Notes: generated by a model from the sequence alone, not told the origin. A DNA stretch of 64,000 bases from Pseudomonadales bacterium (GCA_020632255.1 JACKFX010000006.1:13399-77398), one strand, 5' to 3'; shown: positions 12,118-55,380, counted from the stretch's first letter. Numbers and translations: made by a program.

Positions 12118-12239
12118 AACTCTCACATCCTACTAGGAATTTTACCTTCTGCCAAGAAAGAACTTACTTTTTCTTTCCTTGAATCGCAGCTCTAACTGTT
12201 CTAATCAGAGAGCTTACTCTACCCACGTCCGTTTCTCTG

Positions 12240-38247: not shown

Positions 38248-38318
38248 AGGGCCGTAGTTCAGCGGTAGAATAGAGGTCTCCAAAACCTTTGACGGGGGTT
38301 CGATTCCCTCCGGCCCTG
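38248..38318 (+). tRNA. tRNA-Trp (anticodon CCA).
   Basis: Cloverleaf: acceptor AGGGCCG/CGGCCCT, D-arm GTTC/GAAT, anticodon stem GAGGT/ACCTT with loop CTCCAAA, T-arm GGGGG-TTCGATT-CCCTC, discriminator G. It closely resembles bacterial tRNA-Trp. Confidence 0.9.
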
Positions 38319-38333
38319 CAAAATCCTATAATA

Positions 38334-38362
38334 TTGACTTTTGCGCTATTCATTGCTATAAT
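38334..38362 (+). promoter_or_regulatory. Consensus sigma70-like promoter downstream of tRNA-Trp. Likely the ancestral secE-nusG promoter, now separated from those genes.
   Basis: TTGACT, a 17-bp spacer, then TATAAT. Confidence 0.5.
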
Positions 38363-38409
38363 CACTGAAGTTTAAAATCATATTTTCTAGATCACAGGAG
38401 ATCAGATGA

Positions 38410-39150
38410 AAAAGAAACAAAGGCAGACTGTCAAGCGCTCTTTTCATAGACAGTGAGTTAAGATAGTTGGCGTGGAATTTAGAGGGCGGCATTTCAGAGC
38501 AGAGTGGATTCTTTCGTGGTTGTAGCTGTAAAGTGTGGTGGATGGCTTCTAGAAAATGTCCAGTATCTTCAAAGTGGTCAAATTCTAGACCTAAATCAGT
38601 CTTAAAGTTGTTGTAAAAGCTCTAGTAGCCGTTCTCCGAGGAGAGGCCTTGGCACTCATGGAAACTGTTACTCCAAAATTCTTTACTAAATCTGTGTAAT
38701 CCTGGCTGGTATATTCCGCTCCTTGGTCTGTGTGGACAAATGTTGGTTTTGGAAATCTCGGTTTACTAAGCCATCTACAAAGGCTTGCATAACCAGATTT
38801 TTGTCGTGTCTTTGGGAAACCTGCCATCCCACAATTTCTCTGGTAAATACGTCATAAAAGTAGCTAGGATAGAAAGCTTTCCTTAAATGGCAAGTACGTA
38901 AAATCTCCCACCCAAGTGTGGTTTGGCAAGATTGGACAGCTTCCTTTATCTCATTCTGGTATGGAGCTGGTTTTCTTTGCTCGTCCCGGCTTCTCCATCT
39001 GGCTTTTCTCTTGTATGGCTTAAGCCATACTTGTGCATTAATCAATGCTCTTTTTCCTACGCCAAGCTCAATGGAGATTCTTCGGTAGCCATAGCTCGCT
39101 TGTTAGAACTGAGCCCCAAAGGCTTCTATCTGCTCTTGAGCACAGCATCT
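38410..39150 (-). pseudogene. Degenerate IS3/IS481-family (rve integrase-core) transposase, disrupted by multiple frameshifts and stops.
   Basis: Fragments in different frames: HTDQGAEYTSQDYTDLV..GVTVSMS (DDE core), YNHERIHSAL (C-terminal signature) and a possible OrfA/OrfB junction-like ...SLWGSVLTSEL. No intact ORF. Confidence 0.75.
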
Positions 39151-39222
39151 TTATGCTCCTGTACAAAATCTTTTATACAACCATTGCCTGAAACACGAAA
39201 ATATCTGCTACTACATTCTTGG

Positions 39223-39951
39223 CTATCTCTGAAACTTCTTGCTACAAAGATCTCGCTGTTTCACTTCTTTTTTTTTTGTTATTACACTGCTTTCCCCCAT
39301 ATCTTGGGTACCCAATTCTAGTAAATCAGTTTCTCCATGTCCCCCAACGAGTACTACATCTAAGTCTGTTTCTGGATATTCACTCTTTAAAAGTTTCATT
39401 CTCAAGTAGACATCAATACCGTTTCCTGCCTCAATGATATTGAAATTAAGCTTCTGTGATGCTCCTAAAAGTTCTGCAAAAGTTTCTTCATCTTCATAAA
39501 AAACACCGGCACGATCTGCATAAGGGTATATTAACGTGACGGTAGGAGCTGCAGGATCACGATTCAAAAATCTATGAAATACTTCAATAGGATATCTGCC
39601 AAAGTGACAAACACCATAATTGCTATGTATCTTTTCTAAAACCTCTGGTCCATACTGTTCTCTAAGAATAGAAATTGTTGTAACATTTCTTTCTAAATTA
39701 GAAATATCATAAGATAAACCTAATGCCCCCTTTTCCCATGCCTCAGCTAACAGATCTGCATCTAAGATGTCCGAACTAAATGGGACGGCATACACTTGTT
39801 TAATTAATTCTCTCTTTGCAGGTTGTGACAGAATTTGCATATAGTTATGTAAGACGTTAAGCACTGTTTCTTTATCTTCTTGTTCTCTTAAACGACTCAA
39901 AATTCTCAGTAGTCTTTGTTGAACCTCAACTCCACGATCACCTTCAAGCAT
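39223..39951 (-). CDS. Hypothetical protein (242 aa), island cargo.
   Basis: Clean ORF. No confident motif (VVLVGGHGETD noted). Confidence 0.4.
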   Translation of the reverse strand: MLEGDRGVEVQQRLLRILSRLREQEDKETVLNVLHNYMQILSQPAKRELIKQVYAVPFSSDILDADLLAEAWEKGALGLSYDISNLERNVTTISILREQYGPEVLEKIHSNYGVCHFGRYPIEVFHRFLNRDPAAPTVTLIYPYADRAGVFYEDEETFAELLGASQKLNFNIIEAGNGIDVYLRMKLLKSEYPETDLDVVLVGGHGETDLLELGTQDMGESSVITKKKEVKQRDLCSKKFQR

Positions 39952-40013
39952 AGGTTGAACAAATATTGGGGCATGTAATACTAGACTTGCTAATAACTCT
40001 TGATTATCAGCAA

Positions 40014-40481
40014 CTAAGGATTCAATTTTTGAGCTACAGCTGAACTGACATCAGAATCTAAATACCCGTACAAGTAATCAAGGATAGCTAAATACGATGG
40101 TATCAACTCAGTGTACTTTACTGGATCAAACAACACTAAATAATTAACATTAGACGACAAAATAGATTCTACTCTTTGAATAATTTCAAAACTAATATTA
40201 GAAGTCTGCAAATGAGCGGTGAGAATTGCTAGTGAAGGTACTAATTCTGTTAATAGCTCTGTATGTGCGAACGCAAACTTAATTTTATCTTGGTTTTTTT
40301 CTAAATATCTGCTTAAACCAGGTAAGACTTTTTCTGAACTTTGTGATGCTTGCAAGCTTCTAGATAACTCTGAAAGTTTGTTAACAATTTCTAATGACTG
40401 CTCCCATTGTTCGGAATGCAAATCATATCTACCATCTAAGGTCAAATCGTCTGCCGAATATCTTGTTTCTGTCATACACAA
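40014..40481 (-). CDS. Hypothetical protein (155 aa), island cargo.
   Basis: Clean ORF. It lies 62 nt from the next ORF in a different frame. Confidence 0.4.
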   Translation of the reverse strand: MCMTETRYSADDLTLDGRYDLHSEQWEQSLEIVNKLSELSRSLQASQSSEKVLPGLSRYLEKNQDKIKFAFAHTELLTELVPSLAILTAHLQTSNISFEIIQRVESILSSNVNYLVLFDPVKYTELIPSYLAILDYLYGYLDSDVSSAVAQKLNP

Positions 40482-40518
40482 ATCATACAGACACTTTCTG
40501 GATATTTCATCTCAAGAT

Positions 40519-40546
40519 AGGTTCTAACATCCTTCACTAGCCCCTG
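40519..40546 (+). repeat. Island direct repeat, copy 1 (tRNA-Trp 3'-end-like att/promoter-proximal motif).
   Basis: AGGTTCTAACATCCTTCACTAGCCCCTG, consensus aGGTTCTaACATCnTTCACTAgyCCCTGCA. Confidence 0.7.
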
Positions 40547-40619
40547 TATTTTTTATTTCTCTTGAATTTTAAAGGTGGCATCAACACATTACATCGTGTT
40601 TTTATACTATAATCTATTC

Positions 40620-41453
40620 ATGAACGACTTTTCGAAAAACGCTCCTCCTTCAGCAGATGTTTTGAAAGCATTTGGTATCTCAGATGAAGCTATTCTATTA
40701 CCTGGTGGCGAAGGCACATCATATCGAGCTGGAGATATTGTTCTTAAACCAACACAAAACAATGCTGAATCAGCCTGGATAGCTACTACGCTTTCCTCTA
40801 TCAATCAAGATGGTTTTAGAGTTACTCAGCAAGTAAAAACAACCACTGGAGAGTGGGTGTCTGATGGTTGGCAAGCATTTCGCTACTTAAAAGGAAAATA
40901 CATAAAAGGTAGATGGGAAGAAAAAATAGATATTTCCAGAAAATTTCACGGAGCACTCTCGACTATAGAAAAACCAAATTTTATCGGAACTAGACAAACA
41001 CCTTGGGAAGTTGCCGACTCAGAGATCTGGGGTAGTAATCAAATAACATTTGACCAGCAGCTACAAAAAGTGACCAATCCTCTTCTAGCTGTTAAACAAG
41101 ATATCTTTCCTACCGAGCAACTAATCCATGGAGACATAACAGGGAACATTCTATTTTCAGAGTCTCTGTCACCTGCAATTATCGATTTTTCTCCCTATTG
41201 GAGACCAGCGGAGTATGCAACAGCAATACTCATTGTTGATGCACTAGTTTGGGAGGGTGCTGCTGATTCATTATTTTCTAAACTTGAAAATACTTGGGTA
41301 AATAATCAATTGCTCATACGTGCTGCGCTATGGAGGATAAAAACTTCTGAACTATTCTCTCAGAGAAAACTGAAAGACTTAAAAAATGAGGCTAGTGCGT
41401 ATGCTCACTTTGTTGATGTGCTCTTAAAAAGAATTAGTCATGAAAGAAAATAG
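40620..41453 (+). CDS. Aminoglycoside/choline-kinase-like phosphotransferase (APH family) protein.
   Basis: ATP-binding Lys region GDIVLKP, catalytic LIHGDITGNILF (HGDxxxxN) and IIDFSPY (DFG-like). The ORF extends to 40575. Confidence 0.65.
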   Translation: MNDFSKNAPPSADVLKAFGISDEAILLPGGEGTSYRAGDIVLKPTQNNAESAWIATTLSSINQDGFRVTQQVKTTTGEWVSDGWQAFRYLKGKYIKGRWEEKIDISRKFHGALSTIEKPNFIGTRQTPWEVADSEIWGSNQITFDQQLQKVTNPLLAVKQDIFPTEQLIHGDITGNILFSESLSPAIIDFSPYWRPAEYATAILIVDALVWEGAADSLFSKLENTWVNNQLLIRAALWRIKTSELFSQRKLKDLKNEASAYAHFVDVLLKRISHERK

Positions 41454-41484
41454 GTTCTCACATCGTTCACTAACTAATCCTGCA
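41452..41484 (+). repeat. Island direct repeat, copy 2.
   Basis: AGGTTCTCACATCGTTCACTAACTAATCCTGCA, followed by TTGATA...TATATC promoter-like boxes. Confidence 0.65.
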
Positions 41485-41536
41485 AAAAAATAATCCCGAT
41501 ATTGATAACTTGAAATATTCTGCTATATCTTGAGAG

Positions 41537-42229
41537 ATGTCAAAAACTGAAAACAGTGTGTATGTTATTTCTTCAGTCAGGGGTGTCTCTGAACTAGAAA
41601 GAACAGAAATTGCGCAACATATAAGAAACTTGCGTCAGTCGGGAGAAGAAGTATTTGATCCGTATTTAGACGCACCTCAAACTGATACAAGCGGTCTTGC
41701 AATAATACTCGCAGAATTGAATTTCTTGGTAAAGCTGTCAGAGTCTAGTGATCTTGGAAGGGTTGATATTTTTTGGAATCATACAAGTGAGGGTTCAAGG
41801 GTAGATGTTGGGATGGCTATAGCCTTAAACCTAAGGATTAATCTGGTTAAAATTTTTAATGAGAATGAGAGCTCTTCTCCCCAACTTGTGTTGCGACTTA
41901 TTACCGAAATCTGTGAGCTTCAGGAAATGGGTAACTGGCCACCACAAAAACGAAAAGAAATTAGCCCTGATCTTGCCAAAACACTCAGATATTTAGATGA
42001 AATAAAAAACTCTGAGCAAATATCAATTAATTGGAATTCATTGGATTCAGAAGAAGCTGAATTTCAGAGATTAATCTTGGGTTTGTCGCTGGGGACAATG
42101 GGTAAAAGAAACAAAAATTTAAAAATAACAATAAGAGATGTTGATGGGTATGTTGACCCCGATGTAAAAAGTTATCCTAATGCAATTTCGGCACTAAATA
42201 CATTACTGACAACTGAAAATGGGTTCTAA
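41537..42229 (+). CDS. Hypothetical protein with an N-terminal TIR-like / nucleoside-deoxyribosyltransferase-like (flavodoxin-fold) region.
   Basis: SVYVISSVRGVSELERTEIAQHIRNLRQSGEEVFDPYLD resembles the TIR betaA-alphaA-betaB pattern (xVFISxRGxD...L...G..VFxD). This is tentative. Confidence 0.4.
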   Translation: MSKTENSVYVISSVRGVSELERTEIAQHIRNLRQSGEEVFDPYLDAPQTDTSGLAIILAELNFLVKLSESSDLGRVDIFWNHTSEGSRVDVGMAIALNLRINLVKIFNENESSSPQLVLRLITEICELQEMGNWPPQKRKEISPDLAKTLRYLDEIKNSEQISINWNSLDSEEAEFQRLILGLSLGTMGKRNKNLKITIRDVDGYVDPDVKSYPNAISALNTLLTTENGF

Positions 42230-42250
42230 CATCTTTCACTAGTCCCTGCA
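42221..42250 (+). repeat. Island direct repeat, copy 3; it overlaps the stop codon of the preceding gene.
   Basis: GGGTTCTAACATCTTTCACTAGTCCCTGCA. Confidence 0.7.
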
Positions 42251-42346
42251 GAGTCATGAAATACCCTATTTATCATCTTAATGTTTTAGATTTTTCTAGT
42301 AAAAATAGTATTCCATTTAAAGGTTCGCTGGTTTACAATTAATGCT

Positions 42347-43039
42347 ATGAATGAACAAAATACTTTTTTTGATACTGGTAGCCAACCTTTTGATATCTTA
42401 AGTCATATGAACATAATTGAACATATTCAGAAGAAGATGGAAAAATTCAATGTTTCTGAAAGAGCTGAGTGGTATAAAAATATATTAAAGCGCATGCTAG
42501 GTATTTTTGATGAAATGGATGGACAAAAAATCACCCTTGATATGCAACAATTGTTTGAGAAATTATACACTGAAACTGATTTAACTGGTACTTCTACGAA
42601 TTGTAATAATTCAATTATCGGCAATATTCAGCGAACTGGTAATGAGCAACTTCAAAAATGTTTTCTACTAGCTACGATTGAAGACGCGTCCAATGATACT
42701 AACTCAAAAAATCAATTTTCTCCTGATATTCCACAGTTAGATAAAAATGTGGTTAGACAAAATGCTCAGAATATGGGAGTTGTGCAGATGGAATTGCATA
42801 GGGTGCTAAGATATTGGTTAACTCCTTTATCACCAGAGAAGCGCAAAGATTACTTCAAGCGACTCTATCAATTGACAGATTTTGACGAGAATGAATCAGA
42901 TACAAAATCTAAAGAGCAATTAGTGAATACAAGTGGATCAACGTGTGCATATGAATTTCTTGTCGCCTGGCGTAGGTTTGGTAGTGAAACATTAAATAGC
43001 AAGCTAATTAATGTTATTGAATCTCCAAGTGATATTTAA
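42347..43039 (+). CDS. Hypothetical protein (230 aa), island cargo.
   Basis: Clean ORF, AT-rich codon usage distinct from the core genes. Confidence 0.4.
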   Translation: MNEQNTFFDTGSQPFDILSHMNIIEHIQKKMEKFNVSERAEWYKNILKRMLGIFDEMDGQKITLDMQQLFEKLYTETDLTGTSTNCNNSIIGNIQRTGNEQLQKCFLLATIEDASNDTNSKNQFSPDIPQLDKNVVRQNAQNMGVVQMELHRVLRYWLTPLSPEKRKDYFKRLYQLTDFDENESDTKSKEQLVNTSGSTCAYEFLVAWRRFGSETLNSKLINVIESPSDI

Positions 43040-43059
43040 TTTTCTTATCCAAAATAATT

Positions 43060-43292
43060 TCTTAAGAGTGAACAATCTCTTCGGCTACAAAAAGCCGGAG
43101 CTTCATGCATGAGGACTAATCGCCCTCAATACTTACTTTCGTAAGTATGCAAGACATTCTCATTTAGCCTCCGGCTTAAACTACGCTATTCATCCCTAGG
43201 CTTGAAACGTAGGGTTTTCTGTATTGGAGGAACAAAACGGTATTAAGCCCTCGAAGCTATGGGCTTAAATATCCGATTGCGCTTGATAGAAA
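43060..43292. ncRNA. Candidate structured noncoding RNA or DNA element (unknown class).
   Basis: Several nested helices visible by eye. AAGCCGGAG...CTCCGGCTT is a 9-bp long-range stem. Hairpins include CGGCT-ACAAAA-AGCCG, ATACTTAC-TTTC-GTAAGTAT, CCCTA-GGCTTGAAACG-TAGGG and AAGCCC-TCGAAGCTAT-GGGCTT. The region has no ORF. Confidence 0.35.
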
Positions 43293-43294
43293 CC

Positions 43295-43324
43295 GAGTTC
43301 TAACATCCTTCACTAATCCCTGCC
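43295..43324 (+). repeat. Island direct repeat, copy 4.
   Basis: GAGTTCTAACATCCTTCACTAATCCCTGCC. Confidence 0.7.
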
Positions 43325-43393
43325 GACCATGTGGTGATGAAATTACGAGTTACTCTTCCCAAGAAAAATAGTTTTAAAATATTCGAAAAAATC

Positions 43394-43837
43394 TCATTCT
43401 GGAAAAACAATTACATTGATTGGTCTAGCATCAGAAGCTATCAAATCTTCAATTCTTAATCCTGCTTGAATTGCGTTTAGACCTGATTTTATGGCATCAA
43501 AATGTATTAGGATCAATTTTAAATGCTCCTCATTTTGCAAGTCTATTGGATCTTTACGTGCTGGACTATCACCCCATGCCATACCTTTTAATGCAACTGA
43601 AACCGATCCAATCGCAAGCCTATTAGAAACAACTGCACTAAACTCGATTAACATAGTGTATGATCCTCCCTTAAAACACTCTTTTTGGGCTGTTATTTTC
43701 CCAACATGCATGTTGGCCGCTGGTTCTGCAGTTAGTTTTACGGTAAAGCCTGCATCTCCTAGCTTATCTTGTAGCCATTCTGCAGATTTCATGGCCATTG
43801 ATTCAGGACTGTGATCTGCGAACCTTTCATCAATCAT
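43394..43837 (-). CDS. Hypothetical protein (148 aa), island cargo.
   Basis: Start MIDERF has the RBS AAGGAAGAGAG. The ORF extends to 43951. Confidence 0.45.
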   Translation of the reverse strand: MIDERFADHSPESMAMKSAEWLQDKLGDAGFTVKLTAEPAANMHVGKITAQKECFKGGSYTMLIEFSAVVSNRLAIGSVSVALKGMAWGDSPARKDPIDLQNEEHLKLILIHFDAIKSGLNAIQAGLRIEDLIASDARPINVIVFPE

Positions 43838-44022
43838 ATGTGTTCTCTCTTCCTTTTTATATTTTATATGAAGAATAGGGTAATTAGAAATGAGTGTCAA
43901 GAATCCTAATTGGCTTATTTCATTATTGAATATGGGAAAATCCTCCCACATAAAAACCGTTACTTTTGGTAGCTTTCATACTATCGTCGTTTCATTGAGA
44001 GTTCTAGATCAAATAGTTATAT

Positions 44023-44052
44023 AGGTTCTCACATCATTAACTAGCCCCTGCA
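44023..44052 (+). repeat. Island direct repeat, copy 5.
   Basis: AGGTTCTCACATCATTAACTAGCCCCTGCA, followed by AAACCATAAG. Compare CCCTGCAAAATCCTATAA after tRNA-Trp. Confidence 0.7.
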
Positions 44053-44112
44053 AAACCATAAGTCCACTCTTCCCGCTTTACCAGAGTACATTCCGTGTGC
44101 TATTTTTAAGAT

Positions 44113-44580
44113 ATGAACGAAAACATCCCCACGCTTAAACAAGAAACCCTTGCATTTATGCGGAACATGCCGATTATGTCGGCAGCAATTAACGGCACTC
44201 CTCCTGTCTCGACAATTCTCCTCTTCGCGATTGATGATGATTTCACCATGTACTTTGCTGCCCTCAGCAACAGCTATAAAGCCAAAGCTCTCGAGAAAGA
44301 TTCAGGTTTTTCATTCTCAATTTGGGAACATGATAAGATGTATATACAAGCAAGTGGAAATGCACAGTTACTCCAAGATCCAGAAGAGATCGATGCTACA
44401 ATCGACAAACTAGCAACGGCAGCTTTGGGTATTGAAAACTTCTGGCCACCTGTTTTACAAATAAAAGGTCAGGATTATCAAGTCTATAGACTTGATCTTA
44501 ATTGGATTAGAATTCGCAGTCTTTCAGACAAAACACTTGTCGAAAAAACTAGTAAATTTGTGGAAGTACCCCTAAAATGA
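44113..44580 (+). CDS. Pyridoxamine 5'-phosphate oxidase-like FMN-binding split-barrel protein.
   Basis: LKQETLAFMRNMPIMSAAINGTPPVSTILLFAIDDDFTMYFAALSNSYKAKALEKD follows the PNPOx-like pattern. Confidence 0.6.
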   Translation: MNENIPTLKQETLAFMRNMPIMSAAINGTPPVSTILLFAIDDDFTMYFAALSNSYKAKALEKDSGFSFSIWEHDKMYIQASGNAQLLQDPEEIDATIDKLATAALGIENFWPPVLQIKGQDYQVYRLDLNWIRIRSLSDKTLVEKTSKFVEVPLK

Positions 44581-44945
44581 ACAAAAATCTCTTGATCGTT
44601 GAAGATGACCTATTTTTAGGTAAGCTGACTGTAAAAAAACTCGAAATGGAAGGCTTCACTGTCACTTTCCTCAACGACGGCAGTTCTGTCCATGACGAAG
44701 CAAAGCGACTACAACCAGCCGCAATCTTACTCGATATTATCATGCCAAACAAAGATGGTTTTGAGGCACTCTCAGAATTAAAAGGCGACGACGCGACCAA
44801 AAAAATTCCTGTGATCGTTCTGTCAGCACTCAGTGATGAGAAAGACAAGAAAAAAGCAAAAGACCTTGGAGCAGAGTCATTTTTTGTTAAATCTGACGTA
44901 GAACTTTCTGATATTGCTAAGTATGTTAAAAAAATTGCAAGCTGA
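44577..44945 (+). CDS. Stand-alone response-regulator receiver (CheY-like) domain protein.
   Basis: LLIVEDD, a phospho-acceptor Asp in LLDIIMP and a conserved Lys. There is a 4-nt ATGA overlap with the upstream gene. Confidence 0.75.
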   Translation: MNKNLLIVEDDLFLGKLTVKKLEMEGFTVTFLNDGSSVHDEAKRLQPAAILLDIIMPNKDGFEALSELKGDDATKKIPVIVLSALSDEKDKKKAKDLGAESFFVKSDVELSDIAKYVKKIAS

Positions 44946-45203
44946 TTAAATTTATCATACATTTTATACACTATTCACCAGACTTAGCTCTGTTTTGCAA
45001 ATCGGTGCTAAATGCTAGCTAAGTCTTTAATCTCTCATACATTTTTTGTATATGGTTGAACTAATGCGCTCTGATCATCAGATGTCACTGCCTCACGAAT
45101 TGCTTCAGTGGCATACATACGTCTACTAATCCTCTCTTCAATTGAGAGAAGCATACTACTATCGATTCTTTCTGTTTATCGTTAAAGCAGCTATACTGTT
45201 CCT

Positions 45204-46520
45204 ATGCCAGAACTTTTCGACCCCTTCCTCGTAAAAAGTCTCAAAGAGGACAAAGCGTATTTAGAGACAACTACCGTTCCAATCATCACTGTCTCTAGTA
45301 GTTATCGCGAAGACCTCAAAGAAATGCACGGCTTTCCTGCCAAAGATGACACCCCTGACATTGTTTTTTCTCGGGCCCACTACTCTATGGCTCTCGCAGT
45401 AGGTATGGCAGCATGGGGAAAGAAGATGGATCCAAAAAAGGCCTGGATTCTTGATCCAACTAACTATGTTTCAAAAAAGGACTGGGGTTCAATTGTCTTT
45501 ACTGAGGAAGTTGGTAAATTAATTGCACGACATGATGTACTAAAAACTCTTAAAGCTTTCATCGATAGGTTTGGTCGCAATAAACTTCCTATTTTGGAAA
45601 GCATCACTCCACCACTGTTGTATGTCACCGAAAAAATTTCAGGTCCAATTTTATCGTTCCACATTGCTGCTGGAAACATTTTAGCACCACTCGGAAAAAC
45701 AGTAGTACAAGTGATTACCGATCCGCATGTTCGTGATGAATATGTGACCAATGCTTTCCGCAAAAATATGTATTTTTGTGTCTTTGATGAGAACACGAAA
45801 ACAGAGTTCCTCGAGAAAGCCGCATTAATGGGGGTAAAAGCGGATCCAAAACGAGTTTTCGTTACCGGTGCCCCGATTGATCCACGAACACTTGCAGCAA
45901 AACAAAAAAAGAACCCCTATCGTAGTGGTGTTCTCAAACTGTGTCTCACAACCGGCGGACTCGGAACGAACAAACGCGAACTATTGGAAGTAGTTGAACA
46001 ACTCTTACCCGAACTGCGCAAACAAAATCGCAGTTTGGGATTGGTTGTGTACTGCGCAACCCACGAAGACATTTATAAAGAAGTGGTAAAACTCGCGAAA
46101 GAAAAGCGCGTTGCAGTGGGTGCAGAAACAGACAAATCAGCCGCACTTCGTGTGCTCTATCATCCTCAAATCGTGGATGCAAATGAGAAACTTCAACAAC
46201 TTGCATTCCCTTGGGCACACGGCTTCATTACCAAACCTTCTGGAGACATGGCGTATGATGCCGCAGCATCTGGAAGCTTTGTGCTCACTCTCGATGAGTG
46301 GGGACCTTGGGAAGTGCATATCCGAGAAATATTCGAACAGAAACAAATTAGTCGCAGACTCGTACTCGAATCAGTTGTTCCTCAACTTGAAAGTTTGCGC
46401 AGCGCCAAAGGTCAACAACGTTCCTGGATTGAGCAAGCTATGCTCAATGCCGATGCGCTACCAAGCGCGCTTACCCATGGCGCAAAGCATATTGTTGAGG
46501 TGGTAAAAAATGTTAGTTAA
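45204..46520 (+). CDS. GT-B glycosyltransferase-like protein (MurG/MGDG-synthase/UgtP-like GT28 C-terminal domain).
   Basis: FITKPSGDMAYDAAASGSFVL resembles the ITKPGGxTxxEALAxGxPMI box of GT28 enzymes. Assignment is by eye only. Confidence 0.45.
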   Translation: MPELFDPFLVKSLKEDKAYLETTTVPIITVSSSYREDLKEMHGFPAKDDTPDIVFSRAHYSMALAVGMAAWGKKMDPKKAWILDPTNYVSKKDWGSIVFTEEVGKLIARHDVLKTLKAFIDRFGRNKLPILESITPPLLYVTEKISGPILSFHIAAGNILAPLGKTVVQVITDPHVRDEYVTNAFRKNMYFCVFDENTKTEFLEKAALMGVKADPKRVFVTGAPIDPRTLAAKQKKNPYRSGVLKLCLTTGGLGTNKRELLEVVEQLLPELRKQNRSLGLVVYCATHEDIYKEVVKLAKEKRVAVGAETDKSAALRVLYHPQIVDANEKLQQLAFPWAHGFITKPSGDMAYDAAASGSFVLTLDEWGPWEVHIREIFEQKQISRRLVLESVVPQLESLRSAKGQQRSWIEQAMLNADALPSALTHGAKHIVEVVKNVS

Positions 46521-46540
46521 CTATATATAACTAACTAAAA

Positions 46541-46568
46541 AAAGGCTGCAATATGCAGCCTTTTTTGT
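46541..46568. terminator. Bidirectional rho-independent terminator between the GT-like gene (+) and rpmG (-).
   Basis: AAAAAGGCTGCAATATGCAGCCTTTTTT is a symmetric hairpin with A/T tracts on both sides. Confidence 0.65.
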
Positions 46569-46588
46569 TTCTTCGTAATAATGAGCAA

Positions 46589-46789
46589 TTATTTAAGCTT
46601 TTTAGCTTGCTTGTGCTCAGTGTGTTTGCGGCACTTGTTACAGTACTTGTTGATTGGGAAGGTAGCTTCGCCAGCTTGTTTTTTAAGCTGCTCATTGTTT
46701 TTGTTCATTGAGGTGATGTAACCAAAGTTATCACACTCGCTACACTTTAAACCAATATGTTGTCGTGGACCTTTTTTCTTGCTTGCCAT
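46589..46789 (-). CDS. rpmG: 50S ribosomal protein L33.
   Basis: C4 zinc ribbon CSEC...CNKCRKHTEHKQ, 66 aa. Confidence 0.8.
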   Translation of the reverse strand: MASKKKGPRQHIGLKCSECDNFGYITSMNKNNEQLKKQAGEATFPINKYCNKCRKHTEHKQAKKLK

Positions 46790-47026
46790 ATCTACTTTCT
46801 GTATCTTAATTCAAGATGAGTATAAACGTTTTACAAGATAAAAATAGTTATAATTTTGCATATATTTGTGAGTTTTTGAAGGCTCATTTGTATGATAGTA
46901 GCCGTAGCTACTTGATTACAAATGGAACGCTCAAAAACGCCAAATAGATGTAAAAGAATGCTATTTTTTATTTTGCAAGGCGTTTATTATATCAAAGTTA
47001 TTAGGCTTAGTAAATAAGCCTTTGTG

Positions 47027-47100
47027 AGCCACCTCGGGGATTCGAACCCCGGACCTACGGTTTACAAAACCGTCGCTCTAACCAGCTGAGCTAAGGTGGC
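47027..47100 (-). tRNA. tRNA-Thr (anticodon TGT).
   Basis: The reverse complement folds with acceptor GCCACCT/AGGTGGC, anticodon stem ACGGT/ACCGT, loop TTTGTAA and T-loop TTCGAAT. Confidence 0.85.
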
Positions 47101-47127
47101 AACTGTACCTCCTGCCAAAAAGCAGGG

Positions 47128-47209
47128 TGCCAGGTGTAGGATTCGAACCTACGAAGGCTGAGCCAACAGATTTACAGTCTGTCCTCGTTGACCACTTGAG
47201 TAACCTGGC
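47128..47209 (-). tRNA. tRNA-Tyr (anticodon GTA), class II with a long variable arm.
   Basis: Acceptor GCCAGGT/ACCTGGC, 3-bp D-stem, anticodon loop CTGTAAA, variable arm TGGCTCAGCCTTC, T-arm GTAGG-TTCGAAT-CCTAC, discriminator A. Confidence 0.85.
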
Positions 47210-47291
47210 ACTATGTTTTGTTAAGAACGGTACAAATTATATCCTGAATCTAGAAACTAAACCAGACTAAGAACCCGATTCGCACATCGTG

Positions 47292-47363
47292 AGCCGAAGA
47301 CGGGAATCGAACCCGTGACCCCCATCTTACCAAGATGGTGCTCTACCACTGAGCCACTTCGGC
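47292..47363 (-). tRNA. tRNA-Thr (anticodon GGT).
   Basis: Acceptor GCCGAAG/CTTCGGC, anticodon stem CCATC/GATGG, loop TTGGTAA and T-loop TTCGATT. Confidence 0.85.
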
Positions 47364-47483
47364 ATTTTTTCAATCAGCAACTGTGCAAAACACAAGGCTT
47401 GTAGTGTACTACACGATCTCTAAAATCTCAATTGAAAACGAGAGTTATATTGTACTAAATCTCTGTTCTTTTCTACAAGGGGA

Positions 47484-47518
47484 AAGAAGAAAATGCGCGG
47501 CTTTAAAAAGCCGCGCAT
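47484..47518 (-). terminator. Rho-independent terminator downstream of the 47546-48364 gene.
   Basis: ATGCGCGGCTTT-AAAA-AGCCGCGCAT is an 11-bp stem. On the minus strand it is followed by TTTCTTCTTT. Confidence 0.55.
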
Positions 47519-47545
47519 ACATACATCTATTTCAAACTGTTCAAT

Positions 47546-48364
47546 CTACGAACGAAGCTCAACTGGCCAGAATTGATCTCTAGCCATTACACTGAACTCA
47601 ATTCCTCTTGATGCAGACACAACTTTGAACTCCCCAACTGGGTCATAGGTGTCGCCATCCGGCCACAGCACTGGCTCTTGTCCAAATGCTCCAGCCAAAA
47701 AAATCAGTAAGTCTACTGGATTTGGTGTAAGTAAGTCAAAATGGATTTTTTCTGGTGCATCAACTTTTCCAGGAAAAAATTGGTGTTCAACATACACAAC
47801 CCCATTGGGTGCCCTGCCATCGACAATATCAACTGGCAAGTACAAACGTTGGTGATCATCAGCCGGCCTATTTAATATATCTGTCTGATTCTGCCGTGCA
47901 TATGCAATAGCCGCATCCCACATCGCATCCTCACTACCATGTCGATATCCGACATGGTGAAGACTAACGTCATTCAGCATTGCATACACTAAAGTAGCAG
48001 CAATCACACGATCAACCTCTTGAGGAAGTCCTGAAATAGCAGCTGCCAAATCATCAAATAAGACACCCCCCATCCAACCATATGATTTAACATAATCCTG
48101 GAAAGGCGTAACAGCAAAGCGATTAGTCTGTCGCTCTCTCGAGGCGACAATCAGCTCTCCAAACTTTCCATAGGCAATACCCGATACAGTAGGATCACTA
48201 AGTGATCCTCCCAAAGGTTGCCCAATGGCGATCGTCCCAAGTTGCTCATCAATGTACCCCAGTACCCCGTATGAAACGGGAAATGCTGGGTGTCCAAAAA
48301 CTTGCAACATTTGAAAAAGTAAATCTCCCAGATCAATACCTCGTTGTAACTCTTTTGTATCCAT
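47546..48364 (-). CDS. Hypothetical protein (273 aa).
   Basis: The start MDTKEL is preceded by GGAGG. The ORF extends to 48595, with a possible signal-peptide-like MTKGLLYILLLF start. Confidence 0.45.
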   Translation of the reverse strand: MDTKELQRGIDLGDLLFQMLQVFGHPAFPVSYGVLGYIDEQLGTIAIGQPLGGSLSDPTVSGIAYGKFGELIVASRERQTNRFAVTPFQDYVKSYGWMGGVLFDDLAAAISGLPQEVDRVIAATLVYAMLNDVSLHHVGYRHGSEDAMWDAAIAYARQNQTDILNRPADDHQRLYLPVDIVDGRAPNGVVYVEHQFFPGKVDAPEKIHFDLLTPNPVDLLIFLAGAFGQEPVLWPDGDTYDPVGEFKVVSASRGIEFSVMARDQFWPVELRS

Positions 48365-48744
48365 GGTTCCTCCATTTGGATATAGCTTGATTTGAAATAA
48401 ATTAACGAATAACAGCAAAATGTATAACAAGCCTTTTGTCATACTTTCACTGCAAGTGCTGTATTGTAGCATAAAAAGAATGATGCAGAGGGAAATAAAG
48501 TAAACAAAAACAGCCCTGCGTGAGAGGTGAACGATTCCCGGAGGAACCAAGTGGGTAGGAAGCACACTACTCCTCGGAGCAGAGCGACAATCCATAACCC
48601 GTTTATGAAGTGTTCAGGAAAACTCTTCAACCTCTCACGCAGGGCTGTCTTTTAATGTTCTAGATTCCTTTCGGAATTTCGTTCAGTTGTATCTTAAGTA
48701 TACAACAGTTCTTTTCAACTCAAAATATGAGTAAAGACCTCACT

Positions 48745-49629
48745 TTAGCTCAGTTCTTTGACCCACTCTGATACCTTTTCTCCATATTTTTCTTGATCGA
48801 GGACAAACTTTAGATGAGCTTTGAAGTAGTTTTCTGGATCACCAGTAGTCATCCACTCTCCTTTAGTTTTACCAACTAAGATTCGCTTGGTTTTAGCAAC
48901 TTGGGTAATTGCATCTACTGTCCAAAGTTCATTGTCTTTTCCAGTATTACTTGGAACGAGATACTGCATCACATCTGGAGTCAATAAGTAGCGACCGTAT
49001 GAGCCTAGGCGAGATGGTTCTGTTCCTTTGTTTGGTTTTTCAACAATATAGTCAAGATCTGTACTCGAATCTGCTTTAAATTTTATGATTCCATACTTAT
49101 GTACCACATCTAAACTAACTTCTTGAGACATGATAATTCCAGAAACATCTGGATTGGCTTCATACAAATCTACCATTGTCTTAGCATCTCGTTGAGCGCC
49201 AAAAATAATGTCATCACTATACATAACCAAGAAAGCTTCCTCCCCATCAATAAATCGTTGAGCTGATGCCACTGGAGAGCCATTCCCATATGGTAAACTT
49301 TCATCCTGAGTAATCACCACAATTTTTGGAAAATCCAACACATGTTGGACTGGCTCGTAGCGATCCTCTTTTCCCTGTGCTGCCAGTTGTTTACGAATAC
49401 GGTTTACATTGTTATTAAAGTAGTCTTCATACACTGGCTTGCCCTCTGGAGTAGCCACAATAATAATTTCTTCAATGCCCGCTTCAGCACACTCTTCAAC
49501 GATAAACTGCATAATTGGCTTGTTTCCGAGAGGAAGCATACCTTTTGGTACTGTCTTGGTGATTGGCAGATAACGACTCGCGAAACCAGCGTCAGTTATG
49601 ATCGCTTTTCTAACTCGTTTTTCGTGCAT
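48745..49629 (-). CDS. Second GalU-type UTP--glucose-1-phosphate uridylyltransferase paralog.
   Basis: ITDAGFASRYLPITKTVPKGMLPL is the same family motif as the 7333-8184 gene, but the sequence is divergent. Confidence 0.75.
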   Translation of the reverse strand: MHEKRVRKAIITDAGFASRYLPITKTVPKGMLPLGNKPIMQFIVEECAEAGIEEIIIVATPEGKPVYEDYFNNNVNRIRKQLAAQGKEDRYEPVQHVLDFPKIVVITQDESLPYGNGSPVASAQRFIDGEEAFLVMYSDDIIFGAQRDAKTMVDLYEANPDVSGIIMSQEVSLDVVHKYGIIKFKADSSTDLDYIVEKPNKGTEPSRLGSYGRYLLTPDVMQYLVPSNTGKDNELWTVDAITQVAKTKRILVGKTKGEWMTTGDPENYFKAHLKFVLDQEKYGEKVSEWVKELS

Positions 49630-49881
49630 AAGATCTCCTTAGTGATCGTTGTACTATTCGTATACGTCTATTGTACACGGTTTGATGAGTAAAGTTGAAA
49701 ACCAAGTTTTTAGCCTGGAGCATCATGTTTCAATGCTCTAAACATCACACTTTTTCATACATTGTAGCATTTTTTTGTCTATTCCACTCATTTTTTAAGC
49801 ACAACTTGATTAAATTGCTCAAAAATTCAGACTAAACATTCCTAAAAAAATCAGGTAGTATGTATGTGAGCATACTAACTA

Positions 49882-50859
49882 GTGCGCACATTTATGGCAA
49901 AACATCCACAGCAAACCTCTCCTCTTCAGACCCTGATGCAAGCTACCAGTGATTTTCTAGTTGGCTTTAGTGTCTTCTTGATTATTTCTGGTTTAATTGG
50001 AACTGTGTTTGTGCTTCAAGACTTACAAGAGAATACGTCTCAAGATGTCCGTTCAGATGCAAGTACTGCCACACCACAAGTAGAAATTGCGACAACCGAG
50101 CCGATCTGCCAAACGCTCGATGTCTGTCTTTCCGAAGCCATCGAAGGTCAAACTCAATCTTGTAGTCCTACAGAAATATGTGAAATCCCTCCAGGTTGTT
50201 ACCTCGAAACGATTAGCTGCTTCAGAGAACCATGTGACGTAGATCCTCAAGTTGTTATCTGTCCAGAAAGACTTGATGATATCTTCTTCGCAGATATCAC
50301 AGAACTCGACTCACCTCGCTTCTACACAGATGAAGCCATGACACAAGAAGTATCAGAAGAAAGCCTTGAAGAAGGCAATCGCTACTTCATCAAATCACAA
50401 ATTGAGGTACAAAATGTGGTCAAAAATAGTCTGCCTTCGGACCTTTCTTTTAGTATACGAATGAAAGTTAATGAATCACTTGACTCAGTGAAGCTAGCAA
50501 AATACAACATGCTAACTGAACACCGTGACGGCTACGCCGATATTCTTTCGGGACCTTTTACCGCTAAAAGAAACAACATCGTTGCCTACGAAGTTGGTTC
50601 ACATGATAATAATGGCAACATCCTCATCCCAGAAACAAATTACGACAACAACAAACACCTACACACCTTTTCCGCACAAGCTTGTGCAAACAATCCAGAT
50701 TTAAATAATGATAACAAAGTCGATCTTCGAGACTTCTCCATTCTCAGCCGAGAATTCTTCAAAACAGGCACTAACACTCCAGCAGATATCAACTGTGATG
50801 GAACCGTCAATATTCTTGATTACTCGATCTTAGCAACCAACTTTAGTGTCACAAAATAA
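49882..50859 (+). CDS. Membrane-anchored/secreted protein with a C-terminal type-I dockerin-like module.
   Basis: N-terminal TM/signal segment. The C-terminus has two calcium-binding-loop repeats: DLNNDNKVDLRDFSIL... and DINCDGTVNILDYSILATNF. Confidence 0.6.
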   Translation: MRTFMAKHPQQTSPLQTLMQATSDFLVGFSVFLIISGLIGTVFVLQDLQENTSQDVRSDASTATPQVEIATTEPICQTLDVCLSEAIEGQTQSCSPTEICEIPPGCYLETISCFREPCDVDPQVVICPERLDDIFFADITELDSPRFYTDEAMTQEVSEESLEEGNRYFIKSQIEVQNVVKNSLPSDLSFSIRMKVNESLDSVKLAKYNMLTEHRDGYADILSGPFTAKRNNIVAYEVGSHDNNGNILIPETNYDNNKHLHTFSAQACANNPDLNNDNKVDLRDFSILSREFFKTGTNTPADINCDGTVNILDYSILATNFSVTK

Positions 50860-50870
50860 AGGTACAAAGC

Positions 50871-52598
50871 ATGAAAAAAACAACTCGCTCATTCTTACAA
50901 AAACCTTCTACAACTGGAGTTCTCATTGGGGTATTGGTAGTTGCCTTTAGTGTCGTCGGATTACTCTTAGTCCAAACTCCGCTTGAGCAACCTCAAGACG
51001 TACGTCGTCAAGCTTCTATTGATAGAGGTCAAGTAACTGTTTCACATAGTGTTCAGCCAAGTGAGCTGTCTGTTGGCCAAACCAATACAGTCATGCTTTC
51101 AGTCAATACTGCAGGCGTACCCACTGACGGTATTCAAGTTCTTTTCAATGTCGTCACCGACACCTTCGACAGTATGACCGCAGATATTGTTACTGATGGC
51201 GGTCTTCAAGCTGCAGGAACACAAATTGAGCGCACTCAAGATGGCTTCTTGGTTCAAGCACTCGCCCTACCTGCCACAATTGGGCAACCATTTGTAACTA
51301 CTGGAGATATCTCACTTGTTTTTCTTAGGATGAGCTTCACCCCCACAAAATCCGGCACAATTGCCTTTAACTTTGACCGAGAGGAATCGATCTCCATTCT
51401 CCATGGGAGCAATCCCCTCGAGGACAAACTTAACCATATCAGCCCCTTCACTTTGACTGTCACCGAGGACGGTGATCCCGAAACTTCATCATCTCCATCT
51501 CCGACAGTAACTCCAACTCCCACCCCATCACCTTCTCCATCGCCAGATGCAGTTGGTGGTATTCAAGTTGTAAGTTGTAATCAAGAATGTTCAAGCAATG
51601 CCGAGTGTAGTGTCAATCAACGCTGTTACAACGTTGACGGCACAAACCGCTGTCGCTTAGCAGTCAATCCAACTAACGATCGATGTATTACTGCCGACGT
51701 TGGACCAAACTACAGCTGTAACCACGGTTGTGCAGACACAAATGAGTGTGTAGCTGGTCTTACTTGCTGGTACAACCAATGTCGAAACCCACTTAATGTC
51801 GAAAGCACCAGCTGTGCTGAATTAACACAAACCCAAACTGAAAGTCTTGCTGCTAATTGTAACGCCAGTTGTGAAAGCAATAACGATTGTGACATCAACC
51901 TACGTTGCTACAACGGAGCATGCCGCTTGGTAACTAACCCAAGTAGTTCGACCTGTAGCGCAGCAACTTCTAAAACCATTTCATCTGTTTACTCTACTCC
52001 AAAAGGTGGAGCTCCATCAGAAATCATGGAAAAAACAGATTCGACTAAAACTGCGACCTCAGCAGCAAACGATTCTCCATCGCCTGTAACGACACCACTG
52101 CCAGCTACTGAAGTCACTGAAGAAACCACGACTGGCATGACACTTGAAGACACTCCAGTTTCAGAAAACGAAACTGCACTCGACGTGTTGATGACGATGA
52201 TGAAGAGTCCAGACTCTGCGCTGCCACTCATTATCATCGGATCTGGTATTGGGTTGCTTATCCTGTCTCTAATCATTATTGGCGTGCGCCACATGACAGG
52301 TGGCAGCGCAAGTCCTGCCCCAAGCCGCACTGCAACACCAACCACCACACCAACCCCAAAGCCACAGCCGGTTGTCAACCGCACTGACTTGGGTACGCCA
52401 TTAACAACAGCACGCAACATGACTACTCCAACTGCAAGTATGCCAACCCAGCACAGCCTGCAAACGCAGTCAGTTGCTGCACAAGGCATGCCTCCAGCTG
52501 CCACCCAACCAAGTGCAAGTGGCCAATCAAGCATGCTGCAACGTATGAAGGATAAAGGAATTTCTGCACCACAGACACCTTCCAAGACACAAAAATAA
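50871..52598 (+). CDS. Surface protein with an N-terminal signal anchor, a cohesin-like beta domain, a Pro/Thr linker, three 6-Cys repeats, a TM helix and a P/T/Q-rich tail.
   Basis: The cohesin-like block is TVMLSVNTAGVPTDGIQVLFNV...ISLVFLRMSFTPTKSGTIAFNFD. The repeats are CNQECSSNAEC...C, CNHGCADTNEC...C and CNASCESNNDC...C. The TM helix is LPLIIIGSGIGLLILSLIIIGV. Confidence 0.45.
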   Translation: MKKTTRSFLQKPSTTGVLIGVLVVAFSVVGLLLVQTPLEQPQDVRRQASIDRGQVTVSHSVQPSELSVGQTNTVMLSVNTAGVPTDGIQVLFNVVTDTFDSMTADIVTDGGLQAAGTQIERTQDGFLVQALALPATIGQPFVTTGDISLVFLRMSFTPTKSGTIAFNFDREESISILHGSNPLEDKLNHISPFTLTVTEDGDPETSSSPSPTVTPTPTPSPSPSPDAVGGIQVVSCNQECSSNAECSVNQRCYNVDGTNRCRLAVNPTNDRCITADVGPNYSCNHGCADTNECVAGLTCWYNQCRNPLNVESTSCAELTQTQTESLAANCNASCESNNDCDINLRCYNGACRLVTNPSSSTCSAATSKTISSVYSTPKGGAPSEIMEKTDSTKTATSAANDSPSPVTTPLPATEVTEETTTGMTLEDTPVSENETALDVLMTMMKSPDSALPLIIIGSGIGLLILSLIIIGVRHMTGGSASPAPSRTATPTTTPTPKPQPVVNRTDLGTPLTTARNMTTPTASMPTQHSLQTQSVAAQGMPPAATQPSASGQSSMLQRMKDKGISAPQTPSKTQK

Positions 52599-52843
52599 TC
52601 AGAAAAAACTCCCTAAAAAGTGGTAAAAAAGATCGTGAAGTTAGGGTATTTCAAAAATCGATGTTATTTGTTACAATACTTGCCTATGAACTCACTGCAA
52701 AACTCCAATCAGTTTACTTTTAGTTCTATTTTGGCACAACAAGTTTTTTCTTCTTTCTCAAGTAGTCAAAACTACTATCGGCATCAGAAAAAACTGTTCT
52801 GCTCAAAATATACTCAAAAATTAAATCTTACTGGAGTTTCACA

Positions 52844-55023: not shown

Positions 55024-55380
55024 CTAGTGTTCTTTATTATTGGAAATCGAACCCTCGACACCAATATCTCTAAGACTAATTTCTTTAGTAATTCTATGCA
55101 TAACTTGCTCAATAGTTAACTCAGAAGTGTCAACAATTTTTGCACTATTTGAAACTGTCATCGGCGAGACAACGCGCTCTGAATCCTTGCTATCTCGAGC
55201 AAGGATCGCGTTAAGAACTTCTTCATATGAAATTGAATGCTGTTGTTCCACCAGCTGAGCATGTCTTCGCTGTGCTCTGACTTCTGCAGAAGCTACTAAA
55301 AAGAAACTATTTTGAGATTCTGGAAATACATTCACTGCTAAATCTCTGCCAGTAAACACAATCTTTCCTTCGTGTTCCAT
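55024..55380 (-). pseudogene. cmk: Cytidylate kinase, C-terminal half only (N-terminal P-loop/NMP-binding half absent).
   Basis: GRDLAVNVFPES..FLVASAEVRAQRR...ARDSKDSERVVSP...VDTSELTIEQV aligns to Cmk residues ~105 to the end. Only 97 nt lie upstream before a divergent gene, and no P-loop ORF occurs in any frame. Confidence 0.6.

Follow-up and report, generated by a model that had tools for sequence, protein, structure and literature searches.

A candidate gene cassette array anchored at tRNA-Trp in a genome of the candidate phyla radiation

Introduction

By what route do small genes gather beside a tRNA-Trp gene in units that each end in a copy of the same short repeat? The question is raised by a 64,000-nt stretch of DNA (the window; positions are counted from its first letter) from a metagenome-assembled genome (MAG) deposited as 'Pseudomonadales bacterium' (GCA_020632255.1, JACKFX010000006.1:13399-77398), in which tRNA-Trp is followed by five direct repeats and the genes that they separate. 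An earlier reading made from the sequence alone (the sequence-only reading) had described the whole of the 14.5 kb between tRNA-Trp and secE as an accretion island, organised by units that consist of the tRNA 3' end and its promoter. As set out below, the part from 38.32 to 45.1 kb is probably a chromosomal cassette array that is anchored at tRNA-Trp and worked by site-specific recombination, with a recombinase encoded at an unlinked place.

The source MAG, in which the window belongs to a 79.5-kb contig, is related to Pacebacteria and Woesebacteria. It and the related loci L007, L009 and L011 (L-numbers denote such loci throughout) are labelled 'Pseudomonadales bacterium' by NCBI; by gene content and closest homologues they are Pacebacteria/Woesebacteria of the candidate phyla radiation (CPR), and the taxonomic label is probably wrong. 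The genomes of CPR bacteria are tiny and have few recognised mobile elements, and little is known of how they acquire accessory genes.

Repeats downstream of tRNA-Trp

The tRNA-Trp gene was confirmed with ARAGORN and Rfam, and the consensus promoter reported behind it (TTGACT-17-TATAAT) was recovered in a promoter scan at 38334-38362 with 11 of 12 positions matched. Together with the two nucleotides that follow it, the gene ends in CCCTGCA, which is proposed as the primary attachment core of the array, comparable to attI or attB. All five of the ~30-nt direct repeats listed previously were found downstream, on the + strand, with GGTTCT beginning at 40520, 41453, 42222, 43296 and 44024 (start-to-start distances of 933, 769, 1074 and 728 nt) and with the consensus (A)TAGGTTCTMACATCnTTCACTAGyCCCTGCA. 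The copies lie within 40.5-44.1 kb; nhmmer with a profile of 68 copies detected no sixth copy in the 64 kb, and shuffled windows gave 0 matches. A degenerate copy that had been claimed at 52691-52706, ahead of secE, was undetected by the same profile even at E<=10; it shares only CACTGCAAAA with the repeat and is put down to chance.

The repeats adjoin the 3' ends of the genes before them and are therefore not promoter modules of the genes that follow. The stop codons of the genes at 40620-41453 and 41537-42229 fall inside the repeat, the first being the initial triplet TAG of copy 2 and the second a TAA within GGTTCTAAC of copy 3. Read from the sequence, the consensus ATAGGTTCTAACATCCTTCACTAG contains TAG, TAA and TAG, each in a different frame, so that the site closes any incoming reading frame. 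The description of the unit as a tRNA 3' end plus promoter was accordingly abandoned: the repeat is the 3' terminal site of a cassette, and its identity with the tRNA end is limited to the last 7-8 nt. The island shows no enrichment of promoter-like sites (22 observed versus 19.7 +/- 4.5 expected), and a shared start is found in a minority of cassettes only.

In that minority, about one sixth of cassettes, the unit starts with AWATCCTATAAT right after the core (for example at window 38321-38332, L039:3568, L009:3368 and L002:2689). Together with the TTCACT of the motif 16-17 nt upstream, AWATCCTATAAT makes a -35/-10-like pair spanning the junction, which could act as a junction promoter or as a right-arm binding site.

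The GC shift that had been suggested as a check is present, with a content of 0.372 over 38320-45100 versus 0.432 upstream and 0.419 downstream, and the low GC across the cassettes is counted in favour of a cassette array. Rfam searches of the window and four array loci returned tRNAs only, with no match to the repeat. A tRNA-like match at 55042-55075 was discarded as a chance hit within a coding region.

Cassette boundaries and transfer between genomes

The unit at 41485-42250 recurs in HK-STAS-PATE-15 (L011/L041) at 97-98% identity, and at ~98.5% on the DNA level against L011, as a cassette that stands in a different context. The identity runs from right after the upstream CCTGCA to the downstream CCTGCA, and the flanks and the upstream sites are unrelated; these exact limits imply that the site travels with the preceding gene and that exchange occurs in or right after the core. 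The cassette proteins are 98% identical, whereas core proteins of the same genomes are only 61% (GT-B), 73% (NTP-transferase) and 82% (NusG) identical, and the cassette has therefore moved horizontally.

The ends of other shared units fall 0, +1, +3 or -4 nt away from that of the motif (L002~L008, L005~L020, L007~L009, L002~L011), and one contig of Pacebacteria and one of Woesebacteria share a toxin-antitoxin unit at 92% identity. The left boundary of a unit varies in kind. One unit has the short motif as its left neighbour in L002 and a copy of the tRNA-Trp 3' end in L011, and the first unit of the window (38321-38460) follows the tRNA itself and is homologous to an L039 cassette that follows the motif at 3532, with both homologies beginning CCCTGCA|. 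The three kinds of left boundary (motif, tRNA-Trp 3' copy and tRNA) are interchangeable. The earlier claim that the repeats bound mobile units and are tied to the tRNA-Trp 3' end was thus borne out, with units of one or two genes and a core equal to the tRNA end.

Distribution of the cassette site

A scan for the exact pattern in one genome per species returned 11 stretches, all in CPR assemblies (Saccharibacteria, Pacebacteria, Nealsonbacteria, Woesebacteria and MAGs with CPR gene content labelled 'Pseudomonadales'), and a metagenome scan added 25 further stretches. When mismatches were allowed, 83 copies were collected at 30 representative loci, 70 of them unique. Within every one of these loci all copies have the same orientation, and they are spaced 350-3275 nt apart, with a median of 841 nt. 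Of the 70 unique copies, 24 contain the stop codon of an open reading frame (ORF) with 60 codons or more. The conserved block is sharp-edged, some subfamilies adding 12-40 conserved bases upstream, and the site as a whole measures ~30-45 nt, (A)TAGGTTCKAACATCSTTCACTAGYCCCTGC(C)A, the final 7-8 bases being those in which the tRNA-Trp gene ends.

On contigs of 0.34, 1.08 and 1.19 Mb, exact-pattern matches are confined to the tRNA-Trp region, and the motif is therefore not a genome-wide repeat; the generic element that would have spoken against the sequence-only reading was not encountered. Repeats of the dispersed kinds (repetitive extragenic palindromes, bacterial interspersed mosaic elements or miniature inverted-repeat transposable elements) are likewise a poor model, with 0 copies outside 40.5-44.1 kb in the 64 kb. 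No match to the motif or to the tRNA-Trp 3' end was found in the viral contigs of IMG/VR, and blastn against GenBank phages and PLSDB plasmids found nothing. Folding of the short motif on both strands gave a minimum free energy of 0 or -0.4 kcal/mol, no better than shuffles, and no dyad symmetry could be read in the consensus. In relatives the motif often precedes an intrinsic terminator.

The arrays carry ORFans, RelE/ParE-type and PIN toxin-antitoxin pairs, and Fic/Doc, HD, kinase-like and acyltransferase-like proteins. A recurrent array protein of ~450 aa, at one stage suspected to be a transposase, is a Fic/Doc protein. The array of PATE-15 extends over at least 16 kb with at least 14 motifs. 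In the same genome, L009:3358-6822 (= L041 4144-7608) is a perfect tandem duplication of a 1732-bp block that holds two cassettes and the module 2 described below; it is either real or an assembly artefact.

Link to the tRNA-Trp 3' end

tRNA-Trp lies directly upstream of the array, on the same strand, in ten lineages (the window, L004/L028/L036, L008/L029/L037, L009/L041, L015, L020, L022, L039, L045 and L046), which are all the cases with upstream sequence of sufficient length. The likeness first described between the repeat and the tRNA-Trp 3' end stood for the last 7-8 nt and fell for the whole: the semi-global score of the entire repeat is 5, a weak likeness equalled by 264 of 5000 shuffles, and the 5' half of the motif has a generic T-arm likeness, with specificity for tRNA-Trp confined to those last nucleotides. 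There the motif core co-varies with the tRNA-Trp end across lineages (GCA versus GCCA). In the Pacebacteria type the tRNA ends in ..GGCCCTGCA and the motif in ..GTCCCTGCA; in the Nealsonbacteria type the two ends are ..ACCCCTGCA and ..GCCCCTGCA; and in the Saccharibacteria type, where CCA is encoded, they are ..CCCCTGCCA and ..GCCCTGCCA.

The 3' end of tRNA-Tyr in the window (47125-47210, - strand) with its downstream bases, TAGGTTCGAATCCTACACCTGGCACCCTGC, is closer to the cassette site than that of tRNA-Trp, its score being equalled by 2 of 5000 shuffles. A specific derivation of the motif from tRNA-Tyr was rejected, the high score in the window not being reproduced in other lineages; since the CCCTGC tail is not conserved in relatives, the likeness is read as T-arm similarity plus chance.

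A second conserved unit, module 2, is ORF-less, measures ~183 nt and lies between two CCCTGCA cores in L008, L009/L041, L011, L034 and L045 (copies at L009:3184-3367; L011:208-391 and 1797-1979; L034:1177-1366 and 2923-3102; L045:9186-9370, - strand; L008:1644-1807), with no copy in the window. A terminator comes first, followed by ~130 conserved nt and by GATTCCCTYTGGCCCTGCA, which is exactly the last 19 nt of tRNA-Trp; such 19-nt copies were found in L008, L009/L041, L034 and L045, and the repeats of the window have the 7-nt core only. RNAalifold pairs the 5' block GGGGTCGATAGGTGAATT (also given as GGGGTCGATAGG) with the tRNA-like end over 15 bp in an acceptor-stem-like helix, for which no compensatory changes were seen among the copies. 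A further helix, CCACAT/ATGTGG, was dropped when other copies did not support it. Possible identities of module 2 are an attachment site of the arm type, a pseudogene derived from a tRNA and an RNA, and the unit could serve the cassette system as an accessory site or RNA.

Variable stretch and conserved backbone

The comparison with related genomes that had been called for distinguishes two parts between tRNA-Trp and secE. The common order in relatives is a metallo-beta-lactamase-fold (MBL) hydrolase, a 264-aa gene, tRNA-Trp, a variable stretch, a 438-aa gene, rpmG, tRNA-Thr/Tyr/Thr, the nucleoside triphosphate transferase (NTP-transferase), a ~575-aa protein, secE, nusG, rplK and rplA. From this shared order it follows that only 38.32-45.1 kb is variable and that 45.2-52.8 kb is conserved backbone. 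The island therefore does not fill the interval up to secE, as had been proposed, and in relatives the backbone genes lie between tRNA-Trp and secE. Content between tRNA-Trp and the backbone is almost wholly different between relatives. L044 has an empty site, with a convergent housekeeping gene 16 nt after tRNA-Trp and no motif, and L043 has a PIN/Phd pair there, also with no motif. The segment of tRNA-Trp plus array is inverted in the window and L039 relative to L041, L043, L044, L045 and L046; in those five, the GT-B gene and tRNA-Trp point away from each other and the array has the opposite direction.

The GT-B-like enzyme, formerly counted as cargo, is the product of the 438-aa gene (45204-46520) and belongs to the backbone, where it keeps the same order in relatives and always adjoins rpmG and the tRNA-Thr/Tyr/Thr cluster. 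The protein has no Pfam or PDB sequence match; it has 921 homologues at E<1e-20 and is highly conserved in Microgenomates. On the strength of an AlphaFold2 model (predicted local distance difference test score 79), for which the top Foldseek matches are MGD1 and MurG, it is predicted to have a GT-B glycosyltransferase fold. The gene had been considered as a recombinase, its place divergent to the tRNA in relatives being that of an integron integrase, and the GT-B fold ruled this out. The 264-aa gene upstream of the tRNA has 3 homologues only, all on short contigs.

Proposed mechanism and alternative explanations

A shared core of 7-8 bp, break-points confined to that core, co-orientation of the copies and location at one tRNA together form a signature of conservative site-specific recombination, and short-overlap recombination of this type is known from integrases whose target is the very 3' end of tRNA genes. 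On the reading of the locus as a cassette array, a cassette would measure ~0.35-3.3 kb and comprise a gene or two, in most cases an upstream region of its own, and a 3' site. A site-specific recombinase encoded elsewhere, most likely of the tyrosine type that targets extreme tRNA 3' ends, would exchange strands in the core and would have to act in trans. Insertion of a circular cassette would take place at the tRNA end or at any site already present, and a cassette could be excised through recombination between the flanking cores, the conserved 22-40 nt left of the core serving as a recombinase-binding arm carried by the circle.

Several observations weigh against this reading. As previously stated for the surroundings of the array, no recombinase is found: Pfam, NCBIfam and PADLOC searches of ~75 proteins and inspection of gene tables gave none in the window or at ~45 related loci, and regular expressions for tyrosine (including box-II), serine and IS110-type motifs were negative over all loci; with none found next to any array, the enzyme is hypothetical. 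No circular short contigs or alternative junctions were found. L002, L025 and L030, one lineage from different samples, have an identical array order, and turnover may therefore be slow. All of the conserved sequence in the site is to one side of the inferred crossover, which is unusual for simple tyrosine or serine core sites. L043 and L044 share the backbone and have no motif, and window 44053-45100 and L039 3.9-9.9 kb are variable yet motif-free. Finally, all evidence is comparative and comes from metagenome assemblies, in which repeat-rich arrays can be mis-assembled (the L009 duplication is an example).

Four other explanations were weighed and are judged less likely than site-specific recombination. 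The locus might be what remains, after decay, of many independent integrations at tRNA-Trp by ordinary islands or prophages that carried an integrase, the repeats being leftover attL and attR sites and nothing being mobile today. The 19-nt exact copy of the tRNA-Trp 3' end that recurs in relatives' arrays behind a conserved arm-like segment of ~150 nt is typical of tRNA-targeting integrases, and the low GC and the insertion sequence (IS) relic described below suit an old island. Classical accretion of this kind is nonetheless unlikely: there are zero integrases or fragments of them among more than 80 units at ~45 loci, units of 350-1300 nt are not accounted for, the median unit of 841 nt is too small for an integrase plus cargo, the short motif is distinct and nearly invariant across phyla instead of being a decaying tRNA copy, and a single-gene unit has recently moved between genomes with exact boundaries.

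Alternatively, the motif might be a tRNA-like RNA tag associated with the 3' untranslated region or terminator, with modules swapped by RecA-type homologous recombination after natural transformation. This would agree with the missing recombinase, with the intrinsic terminators that often follow the motif in relatives and with a motif length of ~30 nt, near the minimum for homologous exchange. DprA (24073-25227) and RecR (11500-12126) are both encoded in the window, which makes natural-transformation machinery probable and is relevant to the entry of cassettes. Homologous exchange is nevertheless improbable as the main process. A cassette does not bring along the upstream motif, which differs over its full length, so that the crossover is confined to the last ~7 nt; core and tRNA-Trp end co-vary; arrays begin exactly at the tRNA end, which shares only 7-8 nt with the motif; and the motif has neither a stable fold nor an Rfam match.

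A single-strand or RNA route, whether through an HUH/Y1-type enzyme or through reverse transcription with tRNA-Trp-like ends as primer or template, would explain why the conserved sequence lies wholly 5' of the junction. It could draw on the one-sidedness of the site, on the 15-bp helix of module 2, on the 19-nt tRNA identity, which begins in the T loop, and on the ORF stops within 24 of 70 copies, which could fit the addition of sites to transcripts. The route is very unlikely: no reverse transcriptase, HUH enzyme or TnpA gene was found in or near the arrays, the short motif forms no hairpin, the module 2 helix shows no compensatory changes, and arrays run either way with respect to the backbone, which speaks against reliance on a single replication strand. 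Hardly credible is a regulatory repeat of ancestral origin that is intergenic, non-mobile and conserved with its neighbour genes, to which the stable order in L002/L025/L030 might point; it is already contradicted by inter-repeat genes that differ almost wholly in relatives with the same backbone, by identical units in different neighbourhoods and by a relative with an empty site.

A wider proposition, on which our judgement is evenly divided, is that many CPR bacteria (Microgenomates, Parcubacteria and Saccharibacteria) share a capture platform analogous to integrons and evolved independently of them, with tRNA-Trp as its landing site, a tRNA-derived non-hairpin recombination site and an unlinked recombinase, possibly of a new family or a housekeeping enzyme of the host. 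If true, cassette exchange at one tRNA would be a concrete, testable route of gene flow across CPR phyla, the array would mark the place of strain-specific functions (toxin-antitoxin pairs, Fic proteins, kinases and many ORFans), and the problem that integrons solve would have been solved a second time, by independent evolution. Being short, conserved and sharp in its limits, the site can be used at once as a probe for cassettes in metagenomes and in the search for the recombinase.

Comparison with known systems

Sedentary chromosomal integrons and clusters of attC sites lacking an integrase (CALINs) resemble these loci in having one-directional arrays of small, mostly single-gene units, each ending in a conserved recombination site with boundaries at a short core inside it, a fixed primary insertion point at one end of the array, cargo dominated by ORFans and toxin-antitoxin genes, and the same cassette in different arrays. 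Small co-oriented cassettes with 3' sites, exchangeable between arrays, are thus found here as in integrons. In contrast to integrons, no IntI gene is adjacent or divergent to the array in the window or the related loci, the primary site is a tRNA 3' end and not attI, and the cassettes appear to carry their own upstream regions. An attC site is an imperfect inverted repeat of 57-141 nt with an R''-L''/L'-R' hairpin, whereas the site here is ~30-45 nt, non-palindromic and of dG 0; the core is CCCTGC(C)A, and that of integrons is GTTRRRY. Without a fold, dyad symmetry or a GTTRRRY core, the site is neither attC nor dif-like. The sequence-only reading had correctly set the array apart from classical integrons, with no IntI, no hairpin site and no GTTRRRY core to be found.

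Integrative elements that enter tRNA 3' ends with tyrosine recombinases include cases of tandem accretion with integrase-less elements that are mobilisable in cis. The tycheposons of Prochlorococcus were among the tRNA-3'-end-targeting elements compared (bioRxiv 10.1101/2020.12.28.424599). Shared with such elements are insertion at the end of a tRNA gene that is left intact, cargo gathering beside the tRNA, direct repeats of the tRNA end at the borders, and integrase-less satellites presumably mobilised in trans; in the loci studied here the tRNA is intact, a direct repeat stands at the far border, and the 7-8-nt core ends every cassette. The differences are that the units here are single genes and not multi-kb elements, that tRNA-targeting elements encode their own integrase and none was found at ~45 loci here, that the common repeat is a separate conserved sequence sharing 7-8 nt with the tRNA, and that the same site is kept across several CPR phyla. 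The system is like integrons and like tRNA-anchored accretion in its working, and by defining features it is a member of neither.

Xer-dependent modules, such as the pdif modules of Acinetobacter plasmids and the integrative mobile elements exploiting Xer (IMEX), are small modules with sites of ~28-30 bp and a recombinase encoded outside the module. They are like the present units in having small gene modules between ~28-30-bp sites and no recombinase within the module. A pdif site has two 11-bp inverted arms and a 6-bp spacer, and successive sites alternate in orientation; unlike these, the sites here are all direct, have no dyad symmetry and are tied to a tRNA end, and the one reminder of a XerD arm is ATGTTA in the reverse complement. 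The loci also differ from clustered regularly interspaced short palindromic repeats (CRISPR), with a spacing of 350-3275 nt and genes in each interval in place of 25-50-nt non-coding spacers. No description of the motif, or of integrons, cassettes or tRNA-Trp arrays in CPR, was found in the searchable, incomplete literature.

Features of the window array

The coordinates of the array parts are collected in Table 1.

Table 1. Parts of the candidate cassette array and of its tRNA-Trp anchor in the window.
Feature	Position	Strand	Remarks
tRNA-Trp(CCA)	38248-38318/9	+	ARAGORN; Rfam 67.6 bits
tRNA-Trp gene + 2 nt	38248..38320	+	last bases CCCTGCA (38314-38320), proposed primary core
First cassette, 5' remnant	38321..38460	+	promoter 38334-38362 and start of a small ORF; truncated by IS relic; GC 0.326
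Decayed IS3-family (rve) transposase relic	38461..39274	-	Pfam rve E=0.002; GC 0.421
Cassette remnant	39275..40548	.	two reverse-oriented ORFans, 39223-39951 and 40014-40481; motif copy 1 (40517-40548, ...CCCCTGTA) at end
Kinase-like cassette	40549..41484	+	gene 40620-41453; TIGR02569 family, weak fructosamine-kinase/APH likeness; motif copy 2, 41450-41484, with 3-nt insertion
230-aa ORFan cassette	41485..42250	+	gene 41537-42229; motif copy 3, 42219-42250
Second 230-aa ORFan cassette	42251..43324	+	gene 42347-43039; motif copy 4, 43293-43324, ...CCCTGCC
185-aa ORFan cassette	43325..44052	.	gene 43394-43951, - strand; motif copy 5, 44021-44052
Distal variable segment	44053..45100	+	no terminal motif; PNPOx-like gene 44113-44580, receiver-domain gene 44577-44945 (Pfam)

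The dead IS3/rve element noted earlier was verified as frameshifted DDE fragments, reading ...REIVGWQVS... and ...FVHTDQGAEYTS..., between ~38461 and 39274 on the - strand. The strain variant L012 is 100% identical to the window over 39275-47081 and has another cassette end and motif upstream, in place of the IS relic; an IS3 element later replaced or destroyed the tRNA-proximal part of the array in the window. The first ORFan of the remnant behind the relic is truncated in the window and has 323 aa in L012, and neither of the two ORFans there has a Pfam, PADLOC or NCBIfam match. The 185-aa ORFan has a 52% identical homologue within the L039 island. The distal segment is missing from L039, L040 and L041, its intergenic DNA is not conserved, and the right edge of the variable stretch falls within 44946-45203.

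Minor observations outside the array

Elsewhere in the window, a gene for an IS1595/ISXO2-type DDE transposase (12265-12951, - strand) lies in a 1-kb GC dip (0.369) and is adjoined by a 482-aa ORF without a family match (12981-14429). Two diverged tandem copies with 79-85% identity and a period of ~566-570 nt occupy 1652-2567 (repeat families D2 and D4). In the backbone, a 23-nt inverted repeat (48506-48528 and 48630-48652; 96% complementary, arms 101 nt apart) is placed at the 5' end of a 349-aa ORF (47546-48595, - strand).

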